Shown here in pieces: positions 7,433 through 27,401 of a DNA stretch of 28,593 bases. The stretch covers positions 1-28,593 of the forward strand of contig CAZECW010000054.1 in NCBI GenBank assembly GCA_964510585.1, read 5' to 3'. The notes beneath the pieces were generated by a model that did not search any database, was not told where the DNA came from, and saw only the letters and a list, made by a program, of their open reading frames with translations. Positions within the stretch are counted from its first letter, which is position 1; each line of letters starts with the position of its first letter. The stretch comes from an uncultured archaeon. GTDB taxonomy: Archaea > Asgardarchaeota > Jordiarchaeia > Jordiarchaeales > Jordiarchaeaceae. The position numbers were made by a program, and so were the translations under genes.

Positions 7433-8152
7433 TCATAATAGCCTTTTAACGGCCTCTTTTAGCTTTTCCGAATCAATAATGCTAATGGGGTTCAGGTGGT
7501 AATCCTTCTTGCACAGGGCCAAAATTATCTGTGCGTCCTCCGCTTCCCGGCAACCTACCAAATCAAAAAGGGTTTCTGGACTTGTAATACCGCCAACCAG
7601 AAGTTCCCAGAAAAATTCAGCTTGCGCAGCTAAAATTCTCAGCTTTCCACGAAGAACAATTTCCCTTGACTTGTAGCGGGACGACTCGGAGATAATGTTT
7701 TCCATAAGCCAGCAGCGGGTTTTCACAATATCTACGTTTAGCCATTCTTGGTTTTTTAAATCATAGGCTGCCACATTGTGCTTGTTAATTATTTTGGCGT
7801 CTGGCAGGGATGCACAAGAAGCCACCCATCCCGTATCGAACTTCTCTACCAGTTTTTCCAAGAAATCTGATGAAACGCTTGGAGCTATGTACAATATTCT
7901 TTCGGATTTGCTGTTTCTCTCTTCTTCAAAAAGGGCTCTAAGCTCCCCTATGGCGCTCTCGGGCTCCTCTGAAACGTTCAGATCGGATTCCCATAATCTT
8001 CGGTGGGGCGCAAAAATAGCCACTTCCCTCAGAACGTCACGAGTAAGGAAACCTACTAAGAGCACTGGCCGCCGAAGTGTGAAAACAAGTTGTCCTAGCA
8101 CCGCCAGGCCTTTTTCGCTGAAATAGTTGAGGAGCCCCTTCAAATAATTCAC
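7433..8152 (-). CDS. Hypothetical protein coupled to the MglA-like GTPase (possible DENN-core-like fold)
   Basis: The GTG start overlaps the GTPase stop region; 239-aa open frame. The fold suggestion comes from by-eye pattern only. Confidence 0.75.
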   Translation of the reverse strand: MNYLKGLLNYFSEKGLAVLGQLVFTLRRPVLLVGFLTRDVLREVAIFAPHRRLWESDLNVSEEPESAIGELRALFEEERNSKSERILYIAPSVSSDFLEKLVEKFDTGWVASCASLPDAKIINKHNVAAYDLKNQEWLNVDIVKTRCWLMENIISESSRYKSREIVLRGKLRILAAQAEFFWELLVGGITSPETLFDLVGCREAEDAQIILALCKKDYHLNPISIIDSEKLKEAVKRLL

Positions 8153-8724
8153 CTAGTCTGATTCCTAATAGCTAGACGTATCATGTCCCTAAAAACTTTG
8201 TATACTCCCTTGCATTTTACGGCTGATGCGCCATAAATCGGGATAGAGCTGGGCAGTCCTAAATCCTGCCGGAGTTTTTCTGGTGTAACTGAGTTGGGCA
8301 AGTCCTGCTTATTTGCCTCGACCACTATGGGGATCTTGTTTTCTGTGAAGGCTATTAGCTCCTCGTAGCTTCTTATGTTATCCTTTAACCTATGTTCCTG
8401 TGAGTCAGCGATAAAAAGAACAACATCTGCGTTCTTGGCCACCTGTTCCCTAGTTGCCAGAAACCTCTTTTGGCCAGTAGTGGTGTGGATGTGAAATATA
8501 AAGCTATATGGGGGAAATTCTAGTTGGAAAGCTAAGTAATCCTCCCAAATGGTGCGTTCTTCGCTGGTTGAGACTTCGTAGGGTTGACCTGTTATGTTTT
8601 GGGGGAAGAGTTTCGCTATGGCTCTTAGATTCGTGGTTTTGCCTGAGGATGCTGGCCCCCAAAAGACGATTTTCACCTGTATTAGTCCCTCATTAAAATT
8701 GGTTTGCGTCTTGTCTTGTTCCAA
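8149..8724 (-). CDS. mglA: MglA-like small GTPase
   Basis: KIVFWGPASSGKTTNL, ERTIWEDY, HIHTTTGQ (MglA TVPGQ-type G3), DVVLFIADSQ, ANKQDL, GASAV. Confidence 0.9.
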   Translation of the reverse strand: MEQDKTQTNFNEGLIQVKIVFWGPASSGKTTNLRAIAKLFPQNITGQPYEVSTSEERTIWEDYLAFQLEFPPYSFIFHIHTTTGQKRFLATREQVAKNADVVLFIADSQEHRLKDNIRSYEELIAFTENKIPIVVEANKQDLPNSVTPEKLRQDLGLPSSIPIYGASAVKCKGVYKVFRDMIRLAIRNQTR

Positions 8725-8739: not shown

Positions 8740-9315
8740 TTAGTCCTTCTCTCTTATCACGGCGGCGTCGAGTCGGTTCAGGACGTCCTCTATTTGCTCC
8801 TCGCTTATCTCAATGGTTTTCCTTATGTTTTCGTTGTTCTTTATATCTTCCTCGATTCTCTTCACGTACTGGGTCATCTTTGCCCTAATAAATCCTATAT
8901 TTGCTCTTTCATTGGCGAAGATTAAAAGTAGGAGTGATTTATCCTCGTTGATGTCGCTGATTTTGCAGACGTATAATTGCTTTGACTTGTACATGACCAT
9001 GGCGTTCTGGAACTCGTCAGCGCCCAAATGCTTTTCTACCTGACGTGCTACACCTGCTAGAGCTGCGCCGAGGGCTCCCGCGTTCCATGCGTTCTTTATT
9101 CTGAAGCTTCTAGACTTCGCCAGGGCCTTACCGTCGCTATCCACAAGCAATAGTCCTTCTATGTCGCCTTTTCCCAACATTCTTTTATAGGCTTCCAATA
9201 GGCTGTCGAGGGTGTCTGATAGTTTATTGGTCAAGTAAAAATGTCTTAATTTGTCTTCCTCTTCTCTTTCTTGGGTGTTAAACCAATCCTCACCGTTAGA
9301 CTGTAACTTATCCAT
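8740..9315 (-). CDS. mglB: Roadblock/LC7 (MglB-like) protein with N- and C-terminal extensions
   Basis: IEGLLLVDSDGKALA...GALGAALAGVARQVEKHLG...QLYVCKI...LLLLIFANERANIGFIR is a roadblock pattern. Lies directly upstream of the MglA-like GTPase. Confidence 0.85.
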   Translation of the reverse strand: MDKLQSNGEDWFNTQEREEEDKLRHFYLTNKLSDTLDSLLEAYKRMLGKGDIEGLLLVDSDGKALAKSRSFRIKNAWNAGALGAALAGVARQVEKHLGADEFQNAMVMYKSKQLYVCKISDINEDKSLLLLIFANERANIGFIRAKMTQYVKRIEEDIKNNENIRKTIEISEEQIEDVLNRLDAAVIREKD

Positions 9316-9392: not shown

Positions 9393-10358
9393 TTAGAGTG
9401 TTGATTGTATCAGTTGCGAGCCCTTGTAGGTCCTCACTAGCCTCCTTATTCCCTTATCAATCCTCTCAGGCTTCATCCCGAAATCCATCAATATTCTTTT
9501 TAACTGGCTAGTGTTTGGAGCATTAAACAATATCTTGGGGGAGATGACTTCGGGCCTTAGAAAAGCTTCGCGAATCGGTTCCACATCGAAGGGTTTTAAC
9601 TTCCCCTCGGAAAACATGTTTCCAATGTCTCTGTATTTTTGAACAAGTTTCAGAGCCTTTTTTGCGCCAATTCCCCTAACTCCGGGGTTGAAGTCTGTAC
9701 CTACAAGAATTGCCAAATCCACCAGTTGTTCATAGGTTATATTGTTCTGTTTAAGAACCTCTTCCAAGGTGCTGCACTCCACAATATTTTCGCTGAAATT
9801 CATGTTTCTCAGAACAGCTCTAGCTCCAAATAGAAGGGCGTCATAGTCTTGTGTGAGAACATAATCAGCCTTGCCTATTTGCGTTAAGTAGGCTGCCTGA
9901 GTTTCTCCCTCCCCGGGAGATTTTATCCAGGGAATTCCCATAGAGGTTAAAAGCTCTTGGGTTTCACCTATTATGGTATCGTAGAGTATCTCAGGCGATA
10001 AGGATAGGGTTCTGGCAATTGTGTACTCCCTGTTTCTTTGCGCCTTTCTCAGATAGCCATACTCCCTAGCTAGAGATTCTACCAGATGTTCCCTTTTACC
10101 CTTTAGCCTTGGATGAGAGCCGTCAAACACGTATATTGGTTTAATATGTCGTTCTAGCAAGTTGATAGTTCTGTAAAAAACACCATAAATGTGGGAAGTT
10201 ACGCGCCCCTCTTGGTTGAAAAGGGGGAGATTTTGTCTTCTAATTTTGGTTAAAAACTGGAACAGCGTGTTAGAAGCATCAACGGCCAACCTGGCATTTT
10301 TCAGGTCACTTAAAGGAATAGGTTTGAAACTAACAATGGAGCCCAGTTTCACACCCAC
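9393..10358 (-). CDS. fen: FEN1/XPG-family 5' flap endonuclease (divergent, PIP box truncated)
   Basis: DASN, YVFDG, EGETQ, QDYD, GTDF and H3TH GIGAKKALKLV motifs. GTG at 10358 (MGVKL) preceded by GGAGGTG. Confidence 0.93.
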   Translation of the reverse strand: MGVKLGSIVSFKPIPLSDLKNARLAVDASNTLFQFLTKIRRQNLPLFNQEGRVTSHIYGVFYRTINLLERHIKPIYVFDGSHPRLKGKREHLVESLAREYGYLRKAQRNREYTIARTLSLSPEILYDTIIGETQELLTSMGIPWIKSPGEGETQAAYLTQIGKADYVLTQDYDALLFGARAVLRNMNFSENIVECSTLEEVLKQNNITYEQLVDLAILVGTDFNPGVRGIGAKKALKLVQKYRDIGNMFSEGKLKPFDVEPIREAFLRPEVISPKILFNAPNTSQLKRILMDFGMKPERIDKGIRRLVRTYKGSQLIQSTL

Positions 10359-10419
10359 ACAAACCACCTCCAAAAACAGACCGCATAGTTAAGAACAATT
10401 TTTTGGGCAGCAGGAATGT

Positions 10420-11778
10420 TCATATTACCTCCTCCTGACATGGCGCTTGCTCCTTCTTCTCCCCAACGGTTAAGTGATTGATTGGTAGAATTTGGGATAG
10501 CTCTCGCGAACTATACTTTTCTCTATACTTTCTCCTACGTATCAAATGGTACAAGTACTCTTTACTCTGCCTTGCGTCCACCTGATTCACTACCTGAGAG
10601 GCTGTCTCCCCCACACTCACAATGAAGATTGAGGAGTTCCAAAGTCCAATTTTTTGTGCCTCCATCATCCTCTGGCACTTTACTCTGGATTCCTTCAAAG
10701 CCTTCTCTATTCTTGGTTCCAGAATTAAACTCTTTTCCTGTGACAGCGAGGATATGGCAATCCATGATGCGGGATCATTTTTCTTGAACTTTTTAGTCAC
10801 CAATTTCTCGATCGTGTCCTTAAGCTCTTTTTCAGCTTTCCTTAACTCTATATCCACATCCATAACTGGCTGCAGAAGAAGAATATATCCTAGGCTTCCT
10901 TCACCAAAATTTTCGCCAAGCAAAATTCTATCTAGGACTGGTTTTATGTCTGAGTTGTATTCCAATTCGCTAATCTCGAGCTCCTCAAAATACCTTTCAC
11001 CCAGTTCGTGTACCCGGTTGCCATCGGGAGCTAGTAGAGGCAAGTAAAGGCACCGTTCGGCCTCCAGCTCGTCACATATCAATCTTGTATCGTATCCCTC
11101 CCTCTTCAGAATTTTCCTAAGACTTTGCATCTTCTCTCTCGCCAGTTTAACAGCCTCACCGAAATCTCGGGAAGTCTCCCAAACAGAGACCAGAGTGCGA
11201 AGCTCTTTTCCCCTCCTGTAGACCTCAAAACTGAGATTGAAGCCCTTCTCCCAGCAGGATGATAGTATGGAGCTCCCAGCCCCCCTACCAGTAACTTCTG
11301 CAAACTGGAAAACCTGGAACCCTCTCCAACCAATACTGTACACTGCACAATCATCAAGAATGTAATCCGCAATTAGAGAATTGGGAAACTTCCTCTTAAA
11401 GATCCAATGGAAAGACGCCTCTCTACGCCGCCTCATGAAAAGTGTGAAAAACGAAATCCCGGCAGCTTCAAAAATTATGGTGAACATTGGATGAACTCCA
11501 TAGTGAGACGACAATCCTACAAGAGCGTAGCAGGTGTTACCTACTGCCAGTACTGTCACAACTTGGCTGCTTCTGCTAAACTTCCTATCCAGCAGAAACT
11601 TGGCCAAGAGGTAAAAAGCAAAATAAACTGCTAGAATGTAAAGAATCCCTATGGGGCTACCATTAGAGCAAGCATCCAGCCCGGTGCGAATCAACCTAAT
11701 GGCAAATGAAACACCCAAAGCTAAAGCGCACACTATGAACCCATAATATATGATTTTAAGAAGCACGGCTTCCAACAT
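10420..11778 (-). CDS. Membrane protein (about 4 N-terminal TM) with large cytoplasmic alpha/beta region, function unknown
   Basis: Hydrophobic segments in the first ~115 aa. The start overlaps the stop of the RadB-like gene. Confidence 0.82.
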   Translation of the reverse strand: MLEAVLLKIIYYGFIVCALALGVSFAIRLIRTGLDACSNGSPIGILYILAVYFAFYLLAKFLLDRKFSRSSQVVTVLAVGNTCYALVGLSSHYGVHPMFTIIFEAAGISFFTLFMRRRREASFHWIFKRKFPNSLIADYILDDCAVYSIGWRGFQVFQFAEVTGRGAGSSILSSCWEKGFNLSFEVYRRGKELRTLVSVWETSRDFGEAVKLAREKMQSLRKILKREGYDTRLICDELEAERCLYLPLLAPDGNRVHELGERYFEELEISELEYNSDIKPVLDRILLGENFGEGSLGYILLLQPVMDVDIELRKAEKELKDTIEKLVTKKFKKNDPASWIAISSLSQEKSLILEPRIEKALKESRVKCQRMMEAQKIGLWNSSIFIVSVGETASQVVNQVDARQSKEYLYHLIRRRKYREKYSSRELSQILPINHLTVGEKKEQAPCQEEVI

Positions 11779-12517
11779 CCTTAAACGCTTTTAAAAGACT
11801 AGGACTAACTGGACTTAGTCCCCTACTTGTAATCTGATAAAAAATCTCCCCTCTAATGTCTAGATAATGGTTAATAATTTCGGCCTTAAGGACCGACTTT
11901 ACAACTGTCGTTGAAAAGCGCAGAGTAACTTGGGAGAACTTGTTTAACCCCATTCCCATCGAAGGAATATTCTCCCCTTCTATCCCCTCCATGTTTGATA
12001 TCACTTGGTTTAGTATGAGCATCGCTATGTTTCTTCTTCTTCTACACAGTCCAAGCATTTCCGGCAACTGTTTCTCCACCACCTCACGATATCTGGAAAA
12101 CTGTGTATCGGGTGACAATCCCCTCCGATACTGGGAAGCAATAGTGTCCACAACTATCAATCTAGTTCTGCTGGAAACATAGGCGTCCAGCACACTGATT
12201 ATTTCGGTTTGCTCATCTAAACTCTTGGGGACGATTAGGGTTATTCTCTCTAGTGAATCATCGTCCGGAAAAATCTGCGAGAACCTTTTGAAGGAGAACT
12301 TGTTATCACCATCAATGTAAAGAGTCTGGTATCCTTCCCGAGAAAGGTTTCCCGCGGCCTGCATGGCAAGCGTGGTTTTACCAGTAGCAGCCTCACCATA
12401 GATGTGACTAATCACTCCTGTGGGTAAGCCGCCTCCAATCAAATCATCTATTGGACTCTGGGTATGTACCAACAATGCACCATTATTTCTAACCCTAAGT
12501 GAACTCAACATCACCAC
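11756..12517 (-). CDS. RadB-like / Rad51-paralog RecA-fold ATPase (no N-terminal HhH domain)
   Basis: IDDLIGGGLPTG, Walker A GEAATGKT, LYIDGD, Walker B LIVVD, ILNQV. The start may be the ATG at 12511. Confidence 0.88.
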   Translation of the reverse strand: MVMLSSLRVRNNGALLVHTQSPIDDLIGGGLPTGVISHIYGEAATGKTTLAMQAAGNLSREGYQTLYIDGDNKFSFKRFSQIFPDDDSLERITLIVPKSLDEQTEIISVLDAYVSSRTRLIVVDTIASQYRRGLSPDTQFSRYREVVEKQLPEMLGLCRRRRNIAMLILNQVISNMEGIEGENIPSMGMGLNKFSQVTLRFSTTVVKSVLKAEIINHYLDIRGEIFYQITSRGLSPVSPSLLKAFKDVGSRAS

Positions 12518-12915: not shown

Positions 12916-15123
12916 TCAATCATCTCCCCAATTCCAAATCTCCAATCCCTTCTCTTCTCTACGGATCTTGATGCGTTCCTCCAAACTTTTTCCAATTTTT
13001 TTAACGGTTTCCACGCCCTCCATACTTGCAACCTCCGCGACACAGTGTACCATCCAGTTTAAACTACCAATGACCGATTCTAGGTCACCTTGGGAAACGG
13101 CGTGAAGGGAGCTAGCCTCCCTGATGCTCTTACCATTAATGTAGTCTAGAATCGCTAACCCCATCACTTGCGGCTGCGGTCTACCATACTCCAACTCCAC
13201 TGCACTCAAAACAAGGTCTAGGAATTGGAGCTCATCATCAATATCCTCATACACCCTACTTCTAATCATAATTCCAGTTATAGGTTTAAGGTAGAGTCTC
13301 ATAATTAATCTTCCAAAACTGGTGGGTTTAAAGGTGCCATTGGTGGTTTCCACGATTAACCCTTCATCAATCAGTTTTTTCAGAAAATTATCTGCGTTGA
13401 GGCACTGCGAAATCAAACCCCTATAGGCAGGATAATTCCTATCTACAAATTGGGCGAGCTTAATCAAGTGTCTACACAACTTTTTTTCCTCTCGTTTATG
13501 GTAAGAGCAGGTACACTGGAAGTTTCCCTCCTCATCAAAACTACAGACATTCACAACTGGCTTCTTCACCGTAGCCTCAACCTTCTTGGGCGACACTTGC
13601 ACACTCAAATTTTCGCTGTGAATTCTACCCGCTGCCTTAAACTCACTTACTTCAGAATGATTCACCACAGCGTCCGGAATGTTAAGTGAAGTTACCTGAA
13701 CAAGCGCCTCAAGGCTTAGGTGGGGATTCTTAGACTTCTCATTCCTCCACCAAAATGTTTTTTCGAAAAATTTCAGTATATCCTCACTGCTAGCTTCCTC
13801 GCATTCAAATGTTCTGAGGAGTATTTGCTCCTCAAGGTTTGGTGGATAACCAATGGAGCTCCCCACATCATCATATTTAGGCCGCAGCTCCCCATTCCTT
13901 AACTCGAAATATTTTTTCCGTATCATAAAATGATCCGCATCTGAATCGCACAGCACCACACTGTAGCCTACACTATCATAGTTAGGTCTCCCCGCTCTGC
14001 CCAATATCTGGTGAAACTGATTAGCATTCATAAGTTCAACTTCAAACTCGTCGGTAACCATCTCCACCCGGTTGTAGACATAAAAGTCCCTCAAGATAAC
14101 CAGCCGAGCTGGAGCGTCGATTCCTGCAGAGAGGGTAGTAGTACAACACACCACCTTCAAAAGCCCTCTGCGGAAAGCATCTTCAACAAGCTCCCTGGAA
14201 TCATGATTTAAACCCGCGTGGTGAAAACCCACACCCGCCCTCATCAACTCAATCAGACGTTTAGAATAGTTCTTACTTTCAGCAAAACTTGAGAGTGTTG
14301 CCTTCTCCTCCTCGGTCAAGCAACATGCAACTGAATCAACCAGTTTGCGGGCTAGACTCTCAGCATCTCTCCTATGAGCGACAAAGATAAGAGCTTGACC
14401 ATTACTCTGAACAATTCTTGAAACAAGTTTCCTTATAGCTCCAAGTTTATCCGGCTCAACCAAAACATAATTCTTTAAAGGAACAGGCCGGATGTCTGAC
14501 TCTATCAATCGGCATCCCAACCAGTCCGCTACCTCTCTGGCATTAGCTATAGTTGCGCTTAATCCAATGAGCTGCACCCTCAGCCTCTCCCTTATCCTAA
14601 TTAACACACTTTCCAGCCTTCCCCCCCTCACTCCTTCGCCCATCACATGTATCTCGTCCACAACAATGACTCGCACATCGTAGAGCCAGTTGGGATTTAG
14701 ACGAAGAAGGGAGTCAAATCTCTCAGTGGTGGTGACCAGTATGTCTGCATCCTCCAAAATATCGGGAGTGTGGTGGAAGTCTCCAGTGGATATTCTGATT
14801 CTCAAATTCAAACCTCTATACTTTCTGGCGAGTATGCCGAATTTTTCTCTGGCCAGAGCTTTCAGGGGAGCTACATAAACCGCTTTTCCGCCTTCCAGAA
14901 CCCATTTTAAGATAGCAAGTTCCCCCACCAGAGTTTTGCCACTGGCGGAAGGAGAACAAATCAGGAGATCGGCTCCCTCAAATAAACCCTCCTGAATCGC
15001 CATTGTTTGAATGGTTCGCAAATGGCTTATGCCCTGTTGCTTGAGAATCTCACGAATTTTCTCAGGCACCTTACTCTCATCCAGCCTTAAGAAAACTCCT
15101 AGACTCTTTGAACCATTCCTCAT
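12916..15123 (-). CDS. hel308: Hel308/Ski2-like SF2 DNA helicase with an inserted SWIM-type zinc finger
   Basis: SPSASGKT, DEIH, GLSAT, GVGFHHAGL, TTTLSAGIDAPA, QILGRAGRP. Insert FQCTCS...LCRH fits CxC-xn-CxH. Confidence 0.92.
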   Translation of the reverse strand: MRNGSKSLGVFLRLDESKVPEKIREILKQQGISHLRTIQTMAIQEGLFEGADLLICSPSASGKTLVGELAILKWVLEGGKAVYVAPLKALAREKFGILARKYRGLNLRIRISTGDFHHTPDILEDADILVTTTERFDSLLRLNPNWLYDVRVIVVDEIHVMGEGVRGGRLESVLIRIRERLRVQLIGLSATIANAREVADWLGCRLIESDIRPVPLKNYVLVEPDKLGAIRKLVSRIVQSNGQALIFVAHRRDAESLARKLVDSVACCLTEEEKATLSSFAESKNYSKRLIELMRAGVGFHHAGLNHDSRELVEDAFRRGLLKVVCCTTTLSAGIDAPARLVILRDFYVYNRVEMVTDEFEVELMNANQFHQILGRAGRPNYDSVGYSVVLCDSDADHFMIRKKYFELRNGELRPKYDDVGSSIGYPPNLEEQILLRTFECEEASSEDILKFFEKTFWWRNEKSKNPHLSLEALVQVTSLNIPDAVVNHSEVSEFKAAGRIHSENLSVQVSPKKVEATVKKPVVNVCSFDEEGNFQCTCSYHKREEKKLCRHLIKLAQFVDRNYPAYRGLISQCLNADNFLKKLIDEGLIVETTNGTFKPTSFGRLIMRLYLKPITGIMIRSRVYEDIDDELQFLDLVLSAVELEYGRPQPQVMGLAILDYINGKSIREASSLHAVSQGDLESVIGSLNWMVHCVAEVASMEGVETVKKIGKSLEERIKIRREEKGLEIWNWGDD

Positions 15124-18366: not shown

Positions 18367-19434
18367 TTGGACATAACCAACATTAAGGGTGTAGGACCGG
18401 AAAAAGCCAAAAAACTCATGAATGCCGGCTACAGCACAGTGGAAAGCATCGCCTTCTCCTCACCCAGAGATCTATCCCTAGACTCCGGAATACCAGAAGA
18501 AACCGCCCGAACAATTATCGCCTCCGCCAAGCTAATTATTCGCTCCAAAGAAAACACTAAGGGCGGAAAACTGGTGGAAATCCTCTCCGGTAAAGACGCC
18601 AAAAAAGTCCTGCAAAGCATGGATCACATAACCACCGGAATAAAAGGGCTCGACCGAATATTGGGTGGAGGAATAGAAACCTGTGCAGTAACAGAGTTCT
18701 ATGGACCAGCAAAGGCGGGAAAAACACAGATTTGCCACCAGCTATGCGTCACAGTACAGCTTCCCCGAGAAAAAGGAGGCCTTGAAGCACCAGCCCTCTA
18801 CATAGACACAGAAAGAACAGTCAAATATGACCACATCAAAAGTGTGGCTGAGAGATTCGGCCTGGATCCAGACCTAGCAAGTGACAATGTATTCTACGCC
18901 TACGCTATGAATAGTGAAGCTCTATACGAGCTGGTTCACAAAAATTTGGACGAGGTGGTTCAAAACAGGGGAATCAAACTTGTGGTAGTTGACTGTCTAA
19001 CTGGCCACTTCCGCGCAGAATACTGCGGCAGAGAAAGTCTACCCCTGAGACAACAAAAAATAAACAGAATTATTCACGACCTACTGAGAATTGCGGTGTC
19101 CCACGATTTAGCTGTGGTAGTAACAAACCAAGTGCACTCCCAACCCGACCTGTACGGCAAAAGCGAGAACCCCATAGGCGGACACACAGTAGCCCACGGA
19201 GTCACCTTCAGACTGGGACTGAGCACAAGAAAATACAACATGAGAACTGTAACCGTAGTGGACGCCCCCGCGCTTCCCCCAGACGAAGCCTACTTCGCAA
19301 TAACCTCCAGGGGACTAATTGACATAAACCCCAAGGATTTGAATTCCAAAAGCCCCATCACATTCCCTGGTGAAGGCGAAATAAGAGAAAGAGAAGTAGA
19401 AAGTGTGGAGGAGGCAGAAACCGTTACAGATTAG
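18367..19434 (+). CDS. radA: RadA/Rad51-family recombinase (divergent full-length paralog)
   Basis: N-terminal HhH (IKGVGPEKAKKL), LDRILGGGIET, GKTQICHQL, VQLPREKGGL, YIDTE, LVVVD, FRAEY, RQQK, TNQV, PIGGH. Confidence 0.93.
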   Translation: MDITNIKGVGPEKAKKLMNAGYSTVESIAFSSPRDLSLDSGIPEETARTIIASAKLIIRSKENTKGGKLVEILSGKDAKKVLQSMDHITTGIKGLDRILGGGIETCAVTEFYGPAKAGKTQICHQLCVTVQLPREKGGLEAPALYIDTERTVKYDHIKSVAERFGLDPDLASDNVFYAYAMNSEALYELVHKNLDEVVQNRGIKLVVVDCLTGHFRAEYCGRESLPLRQQKINRIIHDLLRIAVSHDLAVVVTNQVHSQPDLYGKSENPIGGHTVAHGVTFRLGLSTRKYNMRTVTVVDAPALPPDEAYFAITSRGLIDINPKDLNSKSPITFPGEGEIREREVESVEEAETVTD

Positions 19435-19453
19435 AAAATTCCGGTGGTACAGC

Positions 19454-22054
19454 GTGTCTAGACGGGTGATAACATTGACACTACTCTCTCTCATAATTGT
19501 CCTAATGGTTTCCAGCCTCTTTGCAGGTCTCACCACGTCAATCAGTTACCAGTCCAAACCCATAAACGAAGTGAAACCTGTTTACGCTGCCAAATCTGCG
19601 GTGAGTGTTGCCTATCTTACAAATCAATCCACTCCCTTAAAATGGGAGAAATATTTTACAAATGGTTCCAGTCAAGCTAACCTGCAGAATACAATTGGTT
19701 TCCTCTCCTCCCTGGGCACTCGTCACACATCACAGACGGAGTGTAACACTTCTGCAGATTATATTTTTGCAGCTCTTCAATCCTATGGCTACCTGCCCTT
19801 AAGAGACTATTTCTCTGTTATTTGGCAAAATGTGTCCTACATTACCCAAAACATCTACTGTGTTAAGCCCTCCACTTCTCAAGAAATAATCCTTCTTGTC
19901 TGCCATTATGACTCTATAAGAGTCCTAAGAATAGGGGACACGATTTTGGGACTCCAAAACACAAATTGTCCCGGAGCGGTTGACGATGCTGCGGGGGTGG
20001 CGATACTTTTAGAGACCGCCCGACTGCTATATAATGTGAGCCTTGAGAAAACCATTGTTTTCGCTTTTCTGAGCGGAGAGGAGGGAAACAGCACCCAGGA
20101 ACACTGGTTCGGCTCACAGCAACTAGTGACCCAAGGATACCACTTATTCACCACTCAAATTTCAAACATAAAAAGAGTAGTTTACCTAGACACTATTGGA
20201 GAGCTCCCCTACGGCGAGGCAAATGGGCAAATAGTAATATTTTCGGAACCAACACTATGGACACATAAAAGTTCACTTATAGGCGCAGCCACCGATCTCG
20301 GAATAAATATACTTTCTGAAAACGTTCCCCGAGCTAACTCCATTTCCCAAGCTAAAAAGGAATTCTGCTCAGAATGGCACCTACAATCAGTGCTACCCAC
20401 AATAACTATCTCCCAAACTAACTGGACTCTCACCACAAGCGATAGGCTCACCCAACTTGACACCGCCTCCATAATAAGTTACACTCTTATTGAAAATGTA
20501 GCCAAAATTCTCACCGCCTCACTGGTAAGAGAATTCTTCGCACTCCCACCAAGCTCCCCCAGCCATGCGTATGAGTGGAGCGAACTCTTAAAATTCTATT
20601 CAATCGGAGTTACCTTCTTTGAGCAAGACTACATAGACTACTTATCACACCCCAGTTCAAGCGTGGTAATAATTGGACCGGGATTGAACTTTTCAGAAAA
20701 AGAACTCCAAGCCCTAGTCGCCATAAATAAGCCCCTCATATGTACTGGGAACAGTGGTATAGATCTACTTGGAGGCTTAGGCGCACAATTAACCAGCAGT
20801 CCAAGCAACACTAATTACGTTAACCTCTCAAGAGTAGATTTGTTCTACCACCCAATATGGGAAAATGTTGAGGAAAACGTCACCGTTGCAATCAATCATG
20901 GTGAAACAATTCTCATCACCGTTGGAAGCAGCTTTTTCTCATTTCTGGAATACCAGGATAAATGTTGGCTGGGCTGCTATTACGGGCATCCCTCCTCCAA
21001 GTATGTTTTTTACGTGGGGCGGGACAATCCCGCTAATCTCAGCGGCGAAGCAAAACACATTCTTAGTAATCTTGTTTCTTGGTGCTCCAAACAGGAGGAG
21101 TACCATCTGCAGCTTCAACCCTCAAAAATTGTGGGTGGGCAAAAAACAAATCTCACTATGGCTGTGAGAAACGCTCTCAGCTGGGAGGTTGTAGGGGCAG
21201 CCTCTTTTATGGTGAGCATCACCCAGAATGGTGAGCAAATATTTCAAGGTGTTGTGCCAACAATAAATGGTTATTTCACTGTAGAAGTCACACTAAAGGT
21301 GGGAAAATGTGTCCTCTCTGCCTCAAGCGGCATAATTTCTGCAACTAGAGAAGTTGGCGTAATCCCTCCCTTTAACGTTCAAATGTTTTATCCTCCCACC
21401 TCGACTCAGGATGAGTATTTGCTTTTAGCTGTGATGCTAGAGAGCTCATCTTCCCAAGACCAACATCTTCAATTATTCATACCCGAGCTTCGGGTTTATA
21501 CTCAGGTCCATCTTCCTCCAAATGGTTCAGTAATAATATATATTCCCGCAGTCTATACTCCATCGTCTCCCTATGACCAAGGTATTCATCTTTTCACGGC
21601 TATAGTTCAAGGCTATTGTTCAAGCGTTTTAGTCTTCCCGATAGCCATTTCCCCATCACTTAGAAGCACTGTTTTTGGATACGTCCTCCCCTTTGCCGCC
21701 TTACTGGCCTGCAGCATTCTTTCCTACAGAAGAGTATTCCACGTTAAGCCACCGAAGGAGATTCAGCTCAGGGAGGCTAAGAGAAGGGAGAGAAGAAAAT
21801 TCTTTGAGGGACGCATCTTAGAAAATCCAGAAGATGTTGAAATACTGATAAAGTATCTTAGGGAGGCGGGTTTCGTGGAGATGGGTGAAAACCGATTCTA
21901 CGATTCCCAAGCCATAGTTGAGATAAAAAACAAAGAGGAGAACTCCATTGTCAGAATCTTCTCCTCCCAAAGAGATTTCTATGAACATTTACAATTGAAG
22001 TTGGAGGAGTGGGGAAGCCAATCTCAAGGAGGTACTTGGAGTGATGTGGGATGA
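19454..22054 (+). CDS. Membrane-anchored surface protein with M28-peptidase-like domain, GATase-like domain, Ig-like region, C-terminal TM and cytoplasmic tail
   Basis: CHYDS, GAVDDAAG, SGEEG and YLDTIG are M28 motifs. Signal segment RRVITLTLLSLIIVLMVSSLFA after GTG 19454 (GGTGG upstream). TM VFGYVLPFAALLACSILSY. Confidence 0.88.
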   Translation: MSRRVITLTLLSLIIVLMVSSLFAGLTTSISYQSKPINEVKPVYAAKSAVSVAYLTNQSTPLKWEKYFTNGSSQANLQNTIGFLSSLGTRHTSQTECNTSADYIFAALQSYGYLPLRDYFSVIWQNVSYITQNIYCVKPSTSQEIILLVCHYDSIRVLRIGDTILGLQNTNCPGAVDDAAGVAILLETARLLYNVSLEKTIVFAFLSGEEGNSTQEHWFGSQQLVTQGYHLFTTQISNIKRVVYLDTIGELPYGEANGQIVIFSEPTLWTHKSSLIGAATDLGINILSENVPRANSISQAKKEFCSEWHLQSVLPTITISQTNWTLTTSDRLTQLDTASIISYTLIENVAKILTASLVREFFALPPSSPSHAYEWSELLKFYSIGVTFFEQDYIDYLSHPSSSVVIIGPGLNFSEKELQALVAINKPLICTGNSGIDLLGGLGAQLTSSPSNTNYVNLSRVDLFYHPIWENVEENVTVAINHGETILITVGSSFFSFLEYQDKCWLGCYYGHPSSKYVFYVGRDNPANLSGEAKHILSNLVSWCSKQEEYHLQLQPSKIVGGQKTNLTMAVRNALSWEVVGAASFMVSITQNGEQIFQGVVPTINGYFTVEVTLKVGKCVLSASSGIISATREVGVIPPFNVQMFYPPTSTQDEYLLLAVMLESSSSQDQHLQLFIPELRVYTQVHLPPNGSVIIYIPAVYTPSSPYDQGIHLFTAIVQGYCSSVLVFPIAISPSLRSTVFGYVLPFAALLACSILSYRRVFHVKPPKEIQLREAKRRERRKFFEGRILENPEDVEILIKYLREAGFVEMGENRFYDSQAIVEIKNKEENSIVRIFSSQRDFYEHLQLKLEEWGSQSQGGTWSDVG

Positions 22055-22493
22055 AGAAATAGTAGGTGGGATACTAGGCTCTCTACTAACAGATGGAATC
22101 ATACTGCTCGTTGCATTCCTTTTACTGTTCCTAGTTCTCAAAATCATTATGTTGATACTTGGAGCGGAAGAAAACAGGGTGCTTCCCCTACCCTTATCCG
22201 GGGCTCAATGGTCTGAAAAGACTAATCCATATATTCAAATAGCTGAAGCCTTAGAGGAGGGGGATCAGAGAGCCTTACTCTGGTTAATGAGCCGAAACAC
22301 ACTAAGAAGAAGGATTTTTATTGCTCTAAACTCTTTTGCGGTTGATTTGTTTTTGGGCACTGCATCCCTATTATCCGTCCTGAGCATATACCTCAAAATT
22401 AGAGCCCTCCCAGTTCAAGATTGGATTGTAATCATAATGGCAGCGGCGGCCCTTATTCTCATATGCATCTCATATTGGAGGGTAAAAAGTTGA
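22041..22493 (+). CDS. Small membrane protein (about 3 TM)
   Basis: Three hydrophobic segments; the start overlaps the upstream stop and has GGAGG upstream. Confidence 0.8.
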   Translation: MMWDEEIVGGILGSLLTDGIILLVAFLLLFLVLKIIMLILGAEENRVLPLPLSGAQWSEKTNPYIQIAEALEEGDQRALLWLMSRNTLRRRIFIALNSFAVDLFLGTASLLSVLSIYLKIRALPVQDWIVIIMAAAALILICISYWRVKS

Positions 22494-22594
22494 GAATTAA
22501 AGATGATATGGGACGCCTTCTATTCAAATTTAAGACTCCCAGAACTTACTCTAACGGACTGTTACAAACTTAGAGTTAAAGGAGGTTTAAAGAA

Positions 22595-23479
22595 GTGTCA
22601 ATTGAAAAAATAAAGGCCAAAGCAAAAAGTGTGAAGCCCGGAGAAGTGGAGTATGAAGAAGAAGTTACATTTGACAGCCCCGCCGCCATTGAGTGGTCTG
22701 ATAGAAACGCCAAAATCTTCAGCCCAATAAATGTCGCCAAGTTCATGGTAGTAATCACCGTCTGCATACTTTCCTACATTGTATCCAATGTTTACTTGTC
22801 CTATCCCTACTGGATAATTACAACTGCTGTTTGCACCTATGCCGCGCTCTGTGCAGTTAGCACCAAGGCAGCCTCACCCTTCCTCAAACTATTAAGTCAC
22901 GGAAAGTGGCCTAACAAAGAAAAGTTTTCACTGGTAAACCCCTTACAGGATTTAACCTTTTTCTTTATGAATGGAGAGGAATCCGTACTAATAATGCGTG
23001 ACAGTTACAAGCTAGCAGCCTACGCTATGATGAAGGTTAAGGAAATTCCCCTAAACATTAGAGGCGACTTCAAATACTTCTTCCGAACACTATACCTGCA
23101 AAAACTACCAGTAATCTATTTCGTAGAGAGCAGCCCGGTATCCGAGAAAATCGTGAAATACTTACCGAACATGGAAGAAAAAAGTCAAAAGTACCTAGCC
23201 AAGAAAGACCCATCACGCAGAAAAACATTTCTCTGGGGAGGAGGAGGCATATGGACAACCCGCATAGTTCTAGGAACCAAAAAAGAAATAATAGCACCAG
23301 TAAGACTTGACAGCTCCATTAAAAAACTGGTTGAAGAAGTGAAAATGAACGCCTTTACCCTAGCCACCGCATTTGAGAACTCCTACCCTCACTGCAAAAT
23401 TGAACCCCTAGTGGGCGAATCCCTCCTAGAAGCTACTAAAGCCATGCTCACTGGAGGAGGAGTATCCCATTTTTTCTAA
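22595..23479 (+). CDS. 2-TM protein; probable N-terminal part of a VirB4/HerA-like protein (joined to the next ORF by a -1 frameshift)
   Basis: TM pair at about aa 48-90 and a soluble alpha/beta region. Ends CAT TTT TTC TAA (slippery T TTT TTC); the -1 frame runs open into the next ORF. Confidence 0.82.
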   Translation: MSIEKIKAKAKSVKPGEVEYEEEVTFDSPAAIEWSDRNAKIFSPINVAKFMVVITVCILSYIVSNVYLSYPYWIITTAVCTYAALCAVSTKAASPFLKLLSHGKWPNKEKFSLVNPLQDLTFFFMNGEESVLIMRDSYKLAAYAMMKVKEIPLNIRGDFKYFFRTLYLQKLPVIYFVESSPVSEKIVKYLPNMEEKSQKYLAKKDPSRRKTFLWGGGGIWTTRIVLGTKKEIIAPVRLDSSIKKLVEEVKMNAFTLATAFENSYPHCKIEPLVGESLLEATKAMLTGGGVSHFF

Positions 23480-23505
23480 CAGGACTGGAGGCGGCTCTAA
23501 CATTC

Positions 23506-25044
23506 GTGGATCTCGCAGATTTCATGTCCAAGGGATTAGTGGTTAAACCAGCAGCAGAATTCATCAGCCCCTCCGTAGATTACGACTTATTGCTGGGAAG
23601 AGTAATTGAAACAGAAGTCTACAAGGAAGATGTGGACGTAGGACTAAAATTGGAGCACTTACACAGAGGCATTATGGTGGCGGGAGGAAGCCAGGATGAG
23701 CGTAATGCCACCAACCTAAAAATCATCTTTGAAGCATCCAAATTCTCGTGGAACTACCTAATGGTGGATACAAAGAATCAACTTAGAAGACTAGTGAAGT
23801 TGAACCCCGAAACACGCGTGTACCCCAGCAAAAGTATATGCATAAATCCTCTCGACCCAGAAGACTCAAGCATTTCCGAATACATTTCCCTGCTGCTCCA
23901 ACTATTCCAAATCCTATGGAACCTCACAGACAGGCAGAGCATCTGTTTAAGTGAAGCATTAAGGAGTGTATACGAAAAATACGAGAATGCCACTCCCACC
24001 CTTGAAGATTTGAGAAACGCTTTAATCACCCAGAGTTCTTCCAAACTTAGATCCCCACAGGAGAGAAGCGAAATAGAAGGAGTGATACGTGGGATAACGG
24101 GTTTACTAGTTTCCGAAGAATCTCTAACAATAAATGGCCGCTCCACAATGCCTTTCAGAGAACTCGCAACCAACCCCACAATTATTGAAATAACATCCAA
24201 AGACCGCCATTTTTCGAGCTTCTTTAAATGTTTAATGATAATAAAGGCTCTAGCTACAGATAAGAAAAGGTATTCAATATTTATTGACGACGCCGATGAG
24301 GTTTTCAAAAACATAAGGTTTGGATGGAAAACGCAACAAGTCTATTTCCAGGAATATTTAACAGGATGGGTGGAAGCCATAAAAAGAATGAAGGTGGGGC
24401 TGCACATTTCATCTAGTTTACCCAGACTAATCTACGATCCCATTCGCCCTCTAATAGAAACCCAAATATTCCATAAATTAATTTCAAGCGAAGACATCGA
24501 CGCAGCGGGAAACTTATTAGGCTTGGAGGAACATGCACCGGGCATACACTCCAACAAAAGGGAGAGACTCTACCAGAAAACCTACCTCAAATACCTAAAG
24601 GAGGGAGAAGCCCTTTTCCGCAGACCAGACCTGCCAACCGGATTCCCCATCAAGTTGCACTACCCCACACTAGTATCTTCCACGTCCCCCTCAGACCAAG
24701 AAATAAAATCTAGACTCCAAGAGCTTTATCCCCCCCAAAACGTTAACCCAAAAGAAAGTTTACCATCTACTACGCTTGAGAGAGATTTGAAAAACGAAAG
24801 CAAACACGCCGCAGAAATACTGCAACTACTTCACGAATACCCCCAACTCTCATCAACAAACATAGTGCTAAGCCTAAAGATGGAGATGGAACCAGAAAAA
24901 ATAAGGTACCTTCTCGAAAAGCTCAAGGAACTAGAATATCTCAGGGAAAGACTGGAAGTCTGGAAATCAAAAACAAAAAGAGTATACTCTCTAACGCTAA
25001 AAGGAGAACAATCCCTAAAAGAATACACAGAATCTAGACATTAA
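23506..25044 (+). CDS. HerA/FtsK/VirB4-like P-loop domain with degenerate Walker A, plus C-terminal winged HTH
   Basis: LLLGRV...LEHLHRGIMVAGG, YLMVDTKNQ, ICINPLDP, PTLEDL, SIFIDDAD, IETQIFHKL, LKEGEAL follow the HerA/DUF87-type motif order. Walker A reads GGSQDERN. wHTH LSSTNIVLSLKM...VYSLTLKG. Confidence 0.8.
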   Translation: MDLADFMSKGLVVKPAAEFISPSVDYDLLLGRVIETEVYKEDVDVGLKLEHLHRGIMVAGGSQDERNATNLKIIFEASKFSWNYLMVDTKNQLRRLVKLNPETRVYPSKSICINPLDPEDSSISEYISLLLQLFQILWNLTDRQSICLSEALRSVYEKYENATPTLEDLRNALITQSSSKLRSPQERSEIEGVIRGITGLLVSEESLTINGRSTMPFRELATNPTIIEITSKDRHFSSFFKCLMIIKALATDKKRYSIFIDDADEVFKNIRFGWKTQQVYFQEYLTGWVEAIKRMKVGLHISSSLPRLIYDPIRPLIETQIFHKLISSEDIDAAGNLLGLEEHAPGIHSNKRERLYQKTYLKYLKEGEALFRRPDLPTGFPIKLHYPTLVSSTSPSDQEIKSRLQELYPPQNVNPKESLPSTTLERDLKNESKHAAEILQLLHEYPQLSSTNIVLSLKMEMEPEKIRYLLEKLKELEYLRERLEVWKSKTKRVYSLTLKGEQSLKEYTESRH

Positions 25045-25606: not shown

Positions 25607-26551
25607 GTGGCGGTGAAGAATCCCTTGGAAAACTTGGTAATGATAAAGGGCGAGAAACCCTTATGGCCCTCATCCTCAAATGTCCTCGTAATTCGGGACA
25701 GTGACGGTCTCATAATGGTTGAAGCGGGATGCGGGGGCAAAGAGTTTTCCCAGAGACTGGTCAACAAAATGCGTTCAATGGGATTACCCCCAGAAAAGGT
25801 ACATACTATAGTTTTATCCCATGCACACCCCGACCACATGGGAGGAATTTCTACCTTTCTTAAAATAAGTCAACCCACGGTAATCATATCCGAAATAGAT
25901 GCCCCCTCAGCCCGCAACCCCCATCTCCTAACTCATTCCTTTGATGTTCTAATGGGCAAAGAGTATTTCCCCGAGTTGGGATTCAAAGACTCTGGTCTAG
26001 ACCTCTTAACCCTTTTCGAAAAAATATCAAACTGTCCTATGGCCAGCGCTGAACCGGATAAAACCGTTAAGGAGGGCGACAAAATTCAAATGGGCGACTA
26101 CCTGTTTGAGGTTCTACACACTCCGGGACATTCACCAGGCCACATTTCACTTGTGGACCGAGAAGAGAAAATCTGCTACTCGGGAGACGTGGTGGGTGAT
26201 ATGGTTGCTTGGTACTCGCCGAGTTCAGGAGGAGTCCTAGGATACCTTAACAGTCTGGAAAAAATTGAAAAGTTTGACTTGGAGAAAATTTATCCCTCCC
26301 ACGGTGAAATAATTACCGAAAAAGAAAAGGCCATAGGGCGAATCAGAGGAAAACTCTACGAGAGAGAAAATCTCATTCTAAAAGAACTCGAAACTGGACC
26401 AAAACAATTTAGAGAACTAGTTGAAAAAATGTTCCCGAGCCCCAACCAACAGTTTTTCCCCGGAGTCCAAATATTGGAAAGCCACCTCATCAAGCTAGAA
26501 AAAGAAAAAAAGATCACCCGCCAAAACCATCTAGTAATGCAACTAAAATAA
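25607..26551 (+). CDS. Metallo-beta-lactamase-fold hydrolase with C-terminal winged helix
   Basis: SHAHPDHMGG, HTPGHSPGH, SGDVV, PSHG. Confidence 0.94.
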   Translation: MAVKNPLENLVMIKGEKPLWPSSSNVLVIRDSDGLIMVEAGCGGKEFSQRLVNKMRSMGLPPEKVHTIVLSHAHPDHMGGISTFLKISQPTVIISEIDAPSARNPHLLTHSFDVLMGKEYFPELGFKDSGLDLLTLFEKISNCPMASAEPDKTVKEGDKIQMGDYLFEVLHTPGHSPGHISLVDREEKICYSGDVVGDMVAWYSPSSGGVLGYLNSLEKIEKFDLEKIYPSHGEIITEKEKAIGRIRGKLYERENLILKELETGPKQFRELVEKMFPSPNQQFFPGVQILESHLIKLEKEKKITRQNHLVMQLK

Positions 26552-26630: not shown

Positions 26631-27401
26631 TCAATAATAGATAATGCTTGAGTCGGGCTCTATCTCATAATATAGTTTTGTGGTGTCAATTGGAAATTGA
26701 GCCTTTATCACCTGCATATAGTTTCTTAATTTTTCCCCTGCCTCCTCCACTTTAAATTGAATTATTACATCGCTAAGCTGAGATAATATGGCCCTAAACT
26801 TGGTTTCATGGGCGTCCATATTTAACATGTAGAAGGCCAGATCACCGTAATGCTTGTGGAAACGTATGACTCGCCTATAAAATCTTGCAACTTCCTCCTC
26901 GGGTACTCCCATAGAGAGATCGGTTAAGCTTCCAAATATCCAAATAGCCCACGAGTCTAAAGGCAAGCTTTCTCTAACACTCCTCATAAGGGAAAACAAC
27001 CTGTCAGTGTCAAAGGGTTCATCCAGAGTATAAACCTCTTTCCGCAAATTTAATCTTTCATTAGGGGGCTGGCCAGAAAAACAGTCAATAATCCTTATCC
27101 TATCAAAATTAATAAACTCCTTACTACTTTGAACCCCTTCTCCCTTGCGCCAAGAAGACGTCGCCATAAAAAGTAAATCCTCAACTGGCCTAGCATAGTC
27201 CACTATTATCAAATAGAATTCCCTTTTGCTTGCGATGGGCATACTTAAGTTTATAAACTCCCATTGTCTGAAACCGGTCTGATGAAGTATTAAAACTATG
27301 GAATTACTTAAAATTCCCCCACCTAAACGCTCATCTAACTTTTGTATGCCGGTACTAATCAAACCATACTTAATTGAATTGCTACTTGAAGAAATGTCCA
27401 A
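26631..27401 (-). CDS. KaiC/RAD55-like RecA-fold protein with degenerate Walker A
   Basis: ISTGIQKLDERLGGGI, then HQTGFRQW where GxxGxGKT is expected; IIDCFS, LSDVIIQF, YMQVIKA. Confidence 0.8.
   Translation of the reverse strand: MDISSSSNSIKYGLISTGIQKLDERLGGGILSNSIVLILHQTGFRQWEFINLSMPIASKREFYLIIVDYARPVEDLLFMATSSWRKGEGVQSSKEFINFDRIRIIDCFSGQPPNERLNLRKEVYTLDEPFDTDRLFSLMRSVRESLPLDSWAIWIFGSLTDLSMGVPEEEVARFYRRVIRFHKHYGDLAFYMLNMDAHETKFRAILSQLSDVIIQFKVEEAGEKLRNYMQVIKAQFPIDTTKLYYEIEPDSSIIYY

Follow-up and report, generated by a model that had tools for sequence, protein, structure and literature searches.

The question raised by this locus is whether two adjacent open reading frames (ORFs) on the plus strand of an Asgard archaeal contig are two genes or one. 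The window, which is the whole stretch of DNA analysed here, is the entire 28.6-kb contig CAZECW010000054.1 (28,593 nucleotides), part of an archaeal metagenome-assembled genome (MAG; assembly GCA_964510585.1) of 3.78 Mb in 217 contigs. The upstream frame (ORF1) ends in a run of T residues followed at once by a stop codon, and the downstream frame (ORF2) lies in the −1 frame relative to it. The original prediction, made from the letters of this contig, was that the two are joined by programmed −1 ribosomal frameshifting. On computational evidence we consider it quite probable that they form one gene for a membrane-anchored VirB4-like protein expressed in this way. Conserved programmed −1 frameshifts are very rare among the cellular genes of archaea, and this gene is a strong candidate for one.

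ORF1 occupies positions 22595..23479 (+ strand), and its zero-frame translation, the product made when no shift occurs, is 294 amino acids (aa) long. Its GTG start is preceded at 9 nucleotides (nt) by a Shine-Dalgarno (SD)-like GGAGG (22581..22585, + strand); GGAGG at 7–10 nt upstream of the start is also found at several other genes of the window. The 3’-end of ORF1 reads ...TCC CAT TTT TTC TAA (23465–23479), where six T residues (23470–23475) are followed by C at 23476, the TAA stop codon (23477..23479, + strand) and another C. Given these positions, the heptamer T TTT TTC (23470..23476, + strand) is in the X XXY YYZ phase of ORF1 and abuts its stop codon, exactly as had been predicted. The open stretch of the −1 frame runs from 23440 to 25044, and the part of the gene that is read in it after the slip (23476..25044, + strand) contains 522 codons and a stop. 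A −1 slip at the heptamer gives ...GGGVSHFF-LTGLEAALTFVDL... and a trans-frame protein of 294 + 522 = 816 aa, in frame with the GTG at 23506; both the length and the frame agree with the earlier claim. The predicted trans-frame tryptic peptide starts after the Lys of ...EATK and covers ...GGGVSHFF-LTGLEAALTFVDLADFMSK.

A scan of the whole genome for this configuration covered 3202 frames that span at least 150 codons from stop to stop. In 36 of them a canonical heptamer directly adjoins the stop, and a long −1 continuation (522 codons) follows in this one only, the runner-up having 57 codons. The combination of heptamer, stop and long −1 frame exceeds chance and is single in the genome.

Conservation was studied in a genus set of 15 distinct junction sequences, to which five other species-level genomes and ten further metagenomic contigs from NCBI, JGI, ENA and Logan assemblies contribute; a word-based search with ORF1 retrieved relatives at the genus level only. 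The archaeon is a member of the Asgard class Jordarchaeia, or “Freyarchaeia”, and its closest proteins carry the names Candidatus (Ca.) Jordarchaeaceae, Ca. Freyrarchaeum guaymaensis and Ca. Freyarchaeum deiterrae. For wetland Freyarchaeia metatranscriptomes are available (PMC11291895). Each of the five other species-level genomes shows this split; one of them is assembled as a single contig of 3.58 Mb, carries the T6 run and has an ORF1 named Ca. Freyarchaeum deiterrae at NCBI. Both ORFs are under purifying selection, the ratio of nonsynonymous to synonymous divergence (dN/dS) relative to the window being 0.08–0.20 for ORF1 and 0.06–0.11 for ORF2. Despite synonymous divergence (dS) from the window of 1.0–2.4, which is near saturation, the pattern A-TTTTTT-C-T[AG]A-C is kept in 15/15 sequences. 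In the codon preceding the T-run the first base varies (CAT, AAT, TAT) and the third base never does. The window clade (the window, G001, G003 and G004) was set apart, and in the ten sequences outside it only 8.7% of amino-acid-invariant columns are also codon-invariant. The background codon invariance is 8.7–11%, against a slip site invariant in all 15 sequences. At the junction, six of the first eight amino-acid-invariant columns are codon-invariant in the same ten sequences; these are the codons for the two Phe of the slip site and for Gly, Leu, Glu and Pro of the hairpin arms described below. Judging from this suppression of synonymous change, the slip site is conserved beyond the need of the protein.

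Sequence variation downstream of the site follows the −1 frame. The stop codon alternates between TAA and TGA only, which in the −1 frame are parts of the synonymous Leu codons CTA and CTG, and the next codons in that frame are AC[A/C/G/T] and then GG[A/G]. Upstream of the site, 24 of the 41 variable columns are third positions of ORF1; just downstream, 11 of 20 are third positions of the −1 frame, compared with 11 of 18 in undisputed ORF2. The −1-frame linker L T G L E A A L T F V D L A D F (23476..23526, + strand) lies 5’ of the first conserved ATG, and its G-x-E aligns with fused homologs. Over the 16 linker codons the proportion of nonsynonymous differences (pN) is 0.12–0.17 and that of synonymous ones (pS) 0.45–0.60, giving pN/pS of about 0.25, and there are no indels; the true intergenic spacer 5’ of ORF1, unlike the linker, varies in length from about 100 to 200 nt within the genus. 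The stretch from the stop codon to the first conserved ATG evolves as coding sequence of the −1 frame.

We then considered where ORF2 could start by itself. Between the upstream stop and the T-run, neither ATG, GTG nor TTG was found in the −1 frame of any sequence. The GTG at 23506..23508 (+ strand) could be a secondary internal start, and 3 of the 15 genus sequences have GTA or GTT in its place. The nearest GGAGG (23487–23491) is located 14 nt before it, as was pointed out in the original prediction, and ORF2 has no GGAGG at the spacing seen in other genes of the window. The ATG at 23527..23529 (+ strand) is invariant in the genus and without an SD-like sequence upstream; it may be an internal start or simply a conserved Met. 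By this comparison, no start codon of ORF2 is conserved across the genus.

The distribution beyond the genus was assessed by searching a profile of the ORF2 family against 400 genomes of the Asgard phylum, 243 of which contain the family. It is encoded by a single ORF of approximately 760–850 aa in the large family f7 and in others, and the large family f9 has forms of 1260–1320 aa. All split forms located in the phylum searches have the −1 configuration, with the exception of G006, whose two ORFs share one frame and are separated by a TGA. The junctions of other families, whose proteins are about 30% identical to that of the window, read CG-TTTTTTC-TAA-CAGG in G145 (f26), AA-TTTTTTC-TGA-C in G126 and G124 (f12), CA-TTTTTTC-TAA-CC in G139 (f12, another genus) and CG-TTTTTTC-TGA-TGG in the Helarchaeota contig L082; in G140 (f24) there are eight T residues followed by TGA. 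In every frameshift-type sequence the stop codon, TAA or TGA, abuts the heptamer. By the terms of the original prediction, orthologs that are all fused and have no conserved slippery site would have spoken against it. The result is the opposite: fused orthologs do exist, and in the split ones the heptamer is retained without change.

The −1 fusion aligns without gaps with the natural single-ORF homologs (760–850 aa) across the motif F-[FY]-x-x-G-x-E, where the Phe-Phe encoded by the T-run matches the conserved F-[FY]. Close fused forms in family f25 have FYLTGLE and FYQTGIE. At the junction the fused homologs use TTC TAT, TTT TAT, TTC TTT or similar codons, with no T-run, which means that the protein itself does not require one. 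The genome also encodes paralogs, distantly related HerA-like proteins of 980–1041 aa; they are unsplit, and were set aside as irrelevant to the junction.

Two of the split loci differ from this pattern and are described separately. In L010 (G006:C5, approximately 1415–1460) a single TGA lies between two ORFs of the same frame and is followed by GAGGTGGA and an in-frame TTG; the conserved F-x-L-T-G-D-E motif comes after the stop, and the locus could be an ordinary split or a candidate for stop-codon readthrough. In L040 (G140:C11, approximately 1460–1480) the −1 frame reads TTT TTT TTG, a TTG start overlaps the stop, and a hairpin of −24.6 kcal/mol is present; given the longer T8 run, polymerase slippage is also conceivable there.

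Candidate stimulators were searched for on both sides of the heptamer. In 11 of the 15 genus sequences a hairpin, GGGUUGGAG-NNNN-CUCCAACCU, with a stem of 7–9 bp starts 5 nt past the heptamer; its folding energy is −12 to −19 kcal/mol, with a Z-score relative to shuffled sequences of about −2.5 in most cases, and 90.5% of cells pair across the genus. In the window, the hairpin TGGAG-GCGG-CTCTA (23486..23499, + strand) is a remnant of the 9-bp genus stem, three of the nine pairs being lost in the window clade. It starts 9 nt past the heptamer, and the 60 nt downstream of the heptamer fold with −13.4 kcal/mol (z = −0.25 against shuffles), so that the description of this hairpin as weak was accurate. 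The changes that weaken it in the window clade are GGA, CTG and CTA (23482–23502); G004 regains one pair by a non-synonymous A-to-G substitution, which turns U-A into C-G. The window clade may have a lower frameshift efficiency, or may be shifting toward the GTG start at 23506.

Other frameshift lineages have their own, non-homologous stem-loops 5–7 nt past the heptamer (−22.6 to −24.6 kcal/mol). In four of these lineages the stems are 7–15 bp long and differ in sequence and loop length, with Z-scores of −2.4 to −3.9 in f12 g13 (L070, L071), f24 and f26, and of −1.5 in L072 (f12 g21), the only one that is not significant relative to shuffled sequences. In G009, which has an ATG start of its own, the downstream structure is not significant (z = +0.16). 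On the upstream side, GGAGGAGGAG (23453..23462, + strand), which codes for a Gly-Gly-Gly linker and lies 8–17 nt 5’ of the site, was examined as a possible internal SD-like stimulator and rejected: it varies synonymously in the genus (variants include GGTGGTGGAG and GGCGGAGGGG) and is absent in other families. A 16S rRNA 3’-end carrying the anti-SD sequence was sought in the MAG and not found.

The following course of events would account for these features. Ribosomes reaching U UUU UUC (23470–23476) would mostly halt at the adjoining UAA and release the 294-aa product, consisting of the membrane region and the N-terminal domain. Some would slip back by one base, both tRNA-Phe re-pairing with UUU UUU, and continue with CUA ACA GGA... 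to make the 816-aa full-length protein, an arrangement of the Gag/Gag-Pol type. In most relatives the stem-loop 5–7 nt downstream is the likely stimulator. Slow termination with UAA in the A site could in addition let the P-site tRNA slip, and given the degraded stem of the window clade the adjacent stop may matter more there. The ribosomal nature of the shift, its efficiency and the role of the short product are what we infer here. We favour ribosomal −1 slippage since the phase of the heptamer, the spacer of 5–7 nt and the stem-loops fit the classical signal (PMC8211752).

Several observations weigh against this explanation. The hairpin of the window clade is reduced to about 5 bp and folds no better than shuffled sequences. 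The genus stem has one compensatory change only (in G004), which is not significant; support for the stem comes from the suppression of synonymous change together with the independent stems of other families, and not from covariation. Members of the window clade are too close to each other (dS 0.17–0.44) for a test of the site within the clade. An in-frame TTG is located three codons past the stop in 11 of the 15 genus sequences (CTG in the window clade), and together with the invariant ATG at 23527 it makes some independent or re-initiated translation of ORF2 possible in the genus. G009 and the Helarchaeota contig L082 each have an ATG overlapping the TGA, the former still with T6 and the latter with both slip site and hairpin, which indicates that two modes can coexist. 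Finally, one extra U in the mRNA would give the identical ...HFFLTG... protein. The last three observations correspond to two other ways in which ORF2 could be expressed.

One of them is that the ORFs are separate genes with an incidental T-run, ORF2 being translated by re-initiation or from an internal start (TTG/CTG, GTG 23506 or ATG 23527). Gene callers annotate ORF2 from these starts, and relatives with starts of their own include, besides G009 and the Helarchaeota contig, G016 (GTGATGA) and Baldrarchaeota (an ATG with GGAGGAGG, nine codons upstream), neither of the latter two having a T-run. Nevertheless, no start is conserved throughout the genus, given the CTG of the window clade and the GTA or GTT that replaces GTG in three sequences, and the codons CTR ACN GGR before the TTG vary at third positions of the −1 frame only and encode the T-G of the fused-homolog motif. 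In f12 the ORF2 frame has no canonical start until 40–50 codons past the site, inside the conserved domain, so that independent initiation of a complete ORF2 is impossible and the separate-gene explanation is excluded for this family. Separate genes would also leave unexplained the synonymous-site conservation of TTTTTTC across families and the independent hairpins, and ORF2 does not have the GGAGG spacing typical of other window genes. We regard this explanation as unlikely. Transcriptional slippage, by which RNA polymerase would add one U on T6 and part of the mRNAs would be single-frame, would produce the same protein and is in keeping with the T8 of f24, a conserved homopolymer being its sole absolute requirement. 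Against it, T6 is short for polymerase slippage, since known sites usually have at least 8–9 A or T. The run is always in the X XXY YYZ phase and ends in C, and we know of no role for a downstream RNA hairpin in slippage by the polymerase. The strong stem-loops stand at 5–7 nt, a spacing typical of ribosomal −1 signals (PMC8211752). On balance transcriptional slippage is very unlikely to be the mechanism. An artefact or decay, that is, a homopolymer miscall or a recent inactivating frameshift in a pseudogene, is hardly credible. Sequencing and assembly often introduce homopolymer indels, the MAG that contains the window is in 217 contigs, and the original prediction had itself named both a consensus error and a recent frameshift mutation. 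The former is contradicted by T6 in 15 distinct sequences from separate assemblies of several sources, the single-contig 3.58-Mb genome among them; the latter, by the same split and slip site in at least four Asgard families and by dN/dS of about 0.1 for both ORFs over dS above 1.

With programmed −1 ribosomal frameshifting as the preferred explanation, the age of the arrangement can be considered. In a quick maximum-likelihood tree, frameshift and split forms make an unresolved group beside the fused clade, and three state changes are needed. The −1 arrangement could, on this tree, have arisen once; the root and deep branches are not secure. It seems reasonably likely that the frameshift signal (U UUU UUC, abutting stop and stem-loop) predates the divergence of several Asgard lineages and has been kept for the production of both a membrane-anchored VirB3/VirB4-N-terminal “stub” and the full-length protein. 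The same degree of confidence applies jointly to the lineages that this would involve, namely Jordarchaeia, a Helarchaeota-type lineage and at least two further families, and to the suggestion that some later exchanged the signal for a start codon, others having the gene in unsplit form.

The nature of the protein was studied next. In searches of ORF1 and ORF2 against Pfam and NCBIfam no family reached threshold, the sole hints being weak ones to CedD, VirB4-like proteins and PadR, and a single-sequence search against PDB sequences gave no match; family identity was obtained only via profile and structure models. The AlphaFold model of ORF1 (m966252e8e5a1; predicted local distance difference test, pLDDT, 81.8) has helices at residues 44–67, 72–88 and 90–104, and the membrane-helix region of residues 44–104 (22724..22906, + strand) contains two hydrophobic segments. 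Residues 121–286 (22955..23452, + strand) are modelled as an alpha/beta domain like the N-terminal domain of VirB4. The top 13 Foldseek matches of this region are all to the TrwK/VirB4 N-terminal domain of the R388 type IV secretion system (T4SS; 7o42, 8rtd and others), and they are modest (E-values of 1.7e-3 to 6.4e-2, probability 1.0, query-normalised template modelling (TM) score of about 0.37, approximately 180 aligned columns).

The model of ORF2 (m6c058de6b9a1, pLDDT 88.8) contains an FtsK-HerA/VirB4-type ATPase-fold domain with an atypical P-loop (23587..24705, + strand). It matches Sulfolobus HerA (4d2i) with an E-value of 9.5e-13 and VirB4 (4ag5) with a target-normalised TM score of 0.75, as well as TrwB, DndH and defence-type HerA proteins; the family profile finds HerA among PDB sequences at E 1e-7. 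At the C-terminus, profile evidence and the helices and strands of the model (residues 423–511) point to a winged helix-turn-helix of the MarR/PadR-like type (24772..25041, + strand). The structure models of the two ORFs thus confirm the labels “2-TM” and “VirB4/HerA-like” given to them from the sequence. A Walker A motif GxxxxGK[ST] was sought in ORF2 and not found, the region reading VAGGSQDERNATN. The family alignment (A3) gives G-x4/5-R-x2-T-N for the P-loop, in which Arg and Thr are invariant and Lys is lacking (23587–23720 in the window, ORF2 residues approximately 55–72). The invariant Arg occupies the place where the Walker lysine is expected, and the modelled strand-helix loop has three residues. 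With such a P-loop ATPase activity is uncertain, and the ORF2 product may be a non-canonical or inactive NTPase.

According to the models, ORF1 and ORF2 are two halves of one known architecture, the VirB4 N-terminal domain and the ATPase domain. The frameshift product would then restore a complete VirB4-like protein of 816 aa with an N-terminal membrane anchor, and the unshifted product would be the anchor and the N-terminal domain alone. TrwK/VirB4 proteins have about 800 aa, near the length of the fusion. The two N-terminal transmembrane helices recall VirB3, and VirB3-VirB4 fusions are known. The likeness extends to both parts, ORF1 resembling the N-terminal domain of TrwK and ORF2 the ATPase domains of VirB4 and HerA. 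The archaeal DNA-import ATPases CedB and CedD each have a part of the VirB4 N-terminal domain (PMC11868833). The protein studied here differs from the VirB4 and Ced proteins by the lack of GK[ST] in Walker A, by its C-terminal winged helix and by recombination and repair genes as neighbors.

These neighbors form a cluster upstream of the frameshifted gene and are genes for FEN1/XPG (9393–10373, − strand), a RadB-like protein (11756–12517, − strand), a Hel308-type helicase (12916–15123, − strand) and RadA (18367–19434, + strand). Where other Asgard families have a homolog of this gene (L034, L050, L008, L082 and L071), the adjoining gene likewise encodes FEN1, a PLD nuclease or a helicase of the DEAD/Hel308-like type. 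Neighborhood and fold together suggest a role in DNA handling tied to recombination, and by analogy translocation or uptake loosely like that of the Ced system is conceivable. Pfam identified no T4SS or Ced companion genes (VirB6/VirB8/pilin-like, CedA/A1/A2) in the window, of which the small membrane proteins lacking a Pfam match, such as that of 22041–22493, were not inspected by structure. The NCBIfam CedD model gives 22.8 bits against a cut-off of 600, which does not place the protein in the Ced system or T4SS.

Other features of the neighborhood are as follows. An 883-aa protein with an M28 peptidase domain is encoded at 19403–22054, and overlapping it is a 150-aa ORF (22041–22493) without a family, which encodes a small membrane protein; wherever a genus contig extends far enough (L028, L036, L037, L038), the two keep their synteny with the frameshifted gene. 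Downstream, a metallo-beta-lactamase-fold protein of 314 aa (25607–26551) and a KaiC/RecA-like fragment match on the minus strand (26631–27401) are found. The f12 homolog (L071) also has a gene of 314 aa downstream, and that gene encodes a PLD-like nuclease and not a metallo-beta-lactamase. Two Ras/Arf-like small GTPases and a Roadblock/LC7 protein, of the Asgard “eukaryotic signature” type, are encoded at 249–785, 8149–8724 and 8740–9315, the second GTPase gene and the Roadblock gene being side by side. At the unsplit loci of f7 (e.g. L050, 3021–4535) a DEAD/DEAH helicase gene overlaps the 3’-end of the VirB4-like gene by 4–140 nt in nearly every genome, which suggests translational coupling.

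The proposed signal may be compared with known ones. The HIV-1 gag-pol signal consists of U UUU UUA and a stem-loop. Retroviral gag-pol shares with the present site a U-rich X XXY YYZ heptamer, a simple stem-loop, a short spacer, and a short unshifted product with a long fusion of identical N-terminus; the difference is that it is viral and read by eukaryotic ribosomes, whereas here the host is an archaeon and the zero-frame stop follows immediately. In Escherichia coli, dnaX (tau/gamma) is a cellular case of −1 frameshifting which gives two proteins with a common N-terminus and has a downstream hairpin, the shift leading to the short product. In our case the shift would lead to the long product, and the upstream SD-like element, essential in dnaX, is not conserved. 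A 2021 review mentions an internal SD and a hairpin as stimulators (PMC8211752).

Among cellular archaeal genes, that review lists only one with demonstrated programmed −1 frameshifting, fucA1 for alpha-L-fucosidase of Saccharolobus solfataricus P2, where the shift occurs at A AAA AAT (PMC1616953; PMC8211752). Like the gene studied here, fucA1 is a cellular archaeal gene in two ORFs (overlapping by 40 nt in fucA1) with a canonical heptamer and a putative stem-loop, and without a −1 shift no full-length product is made from it. Two strains alone have the fucA1 split, other Sulfolobales having a full-length gene with one A fewer (PMC8211752), whereas in our case both the split and the exact heptamer persist throughout the genus and in several families, and the stop directly follows a U-rich heptamer. 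A 2016 review adds some haloarchaeal virus tail genes and a predicted case, the Mg-chelatase genes of Methanocaldococcus/Methanococcus and some bacteria, with a conserved frameshift at A_AAA_AAR (PMC5009743). These share with our case overlapping ORFs, location in archaeal cellular genes and a shift site under purifying selection; the gene family, shift site and phylum are different, and in the passage concerned no conserved downstream hairpin is noted for Mg-chelatase (PMC5009743). In the literature that was searched, frameshifting is reported neither for Asgard archaea nor for VirB4-like genes. The proposed signal is notable for the depth of its conservation and for its host lineage.

If the frameshift is real, the annotation would need correction, the two ORFs, where named in the collection searched, being separate entries such as “hypothetical protein” and “predicted transcriptional regulator”. 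The junction would also be a natural cassette for frameshifting tests on Asgard-type or other archaeal ribosomes. Attention would further be drawn to an uncharacterised and widespread Asgard VirB4-like protein that is repeatedly encoded beside recombination genes. No cellular programmed −1 frameshift known from Archaea would be more deeply conserved, the lineage nearest to eukaryotes would have its first example, and frameshifting by a heptamer with a downstream structure would be an old, selected trait of archaeal translation.

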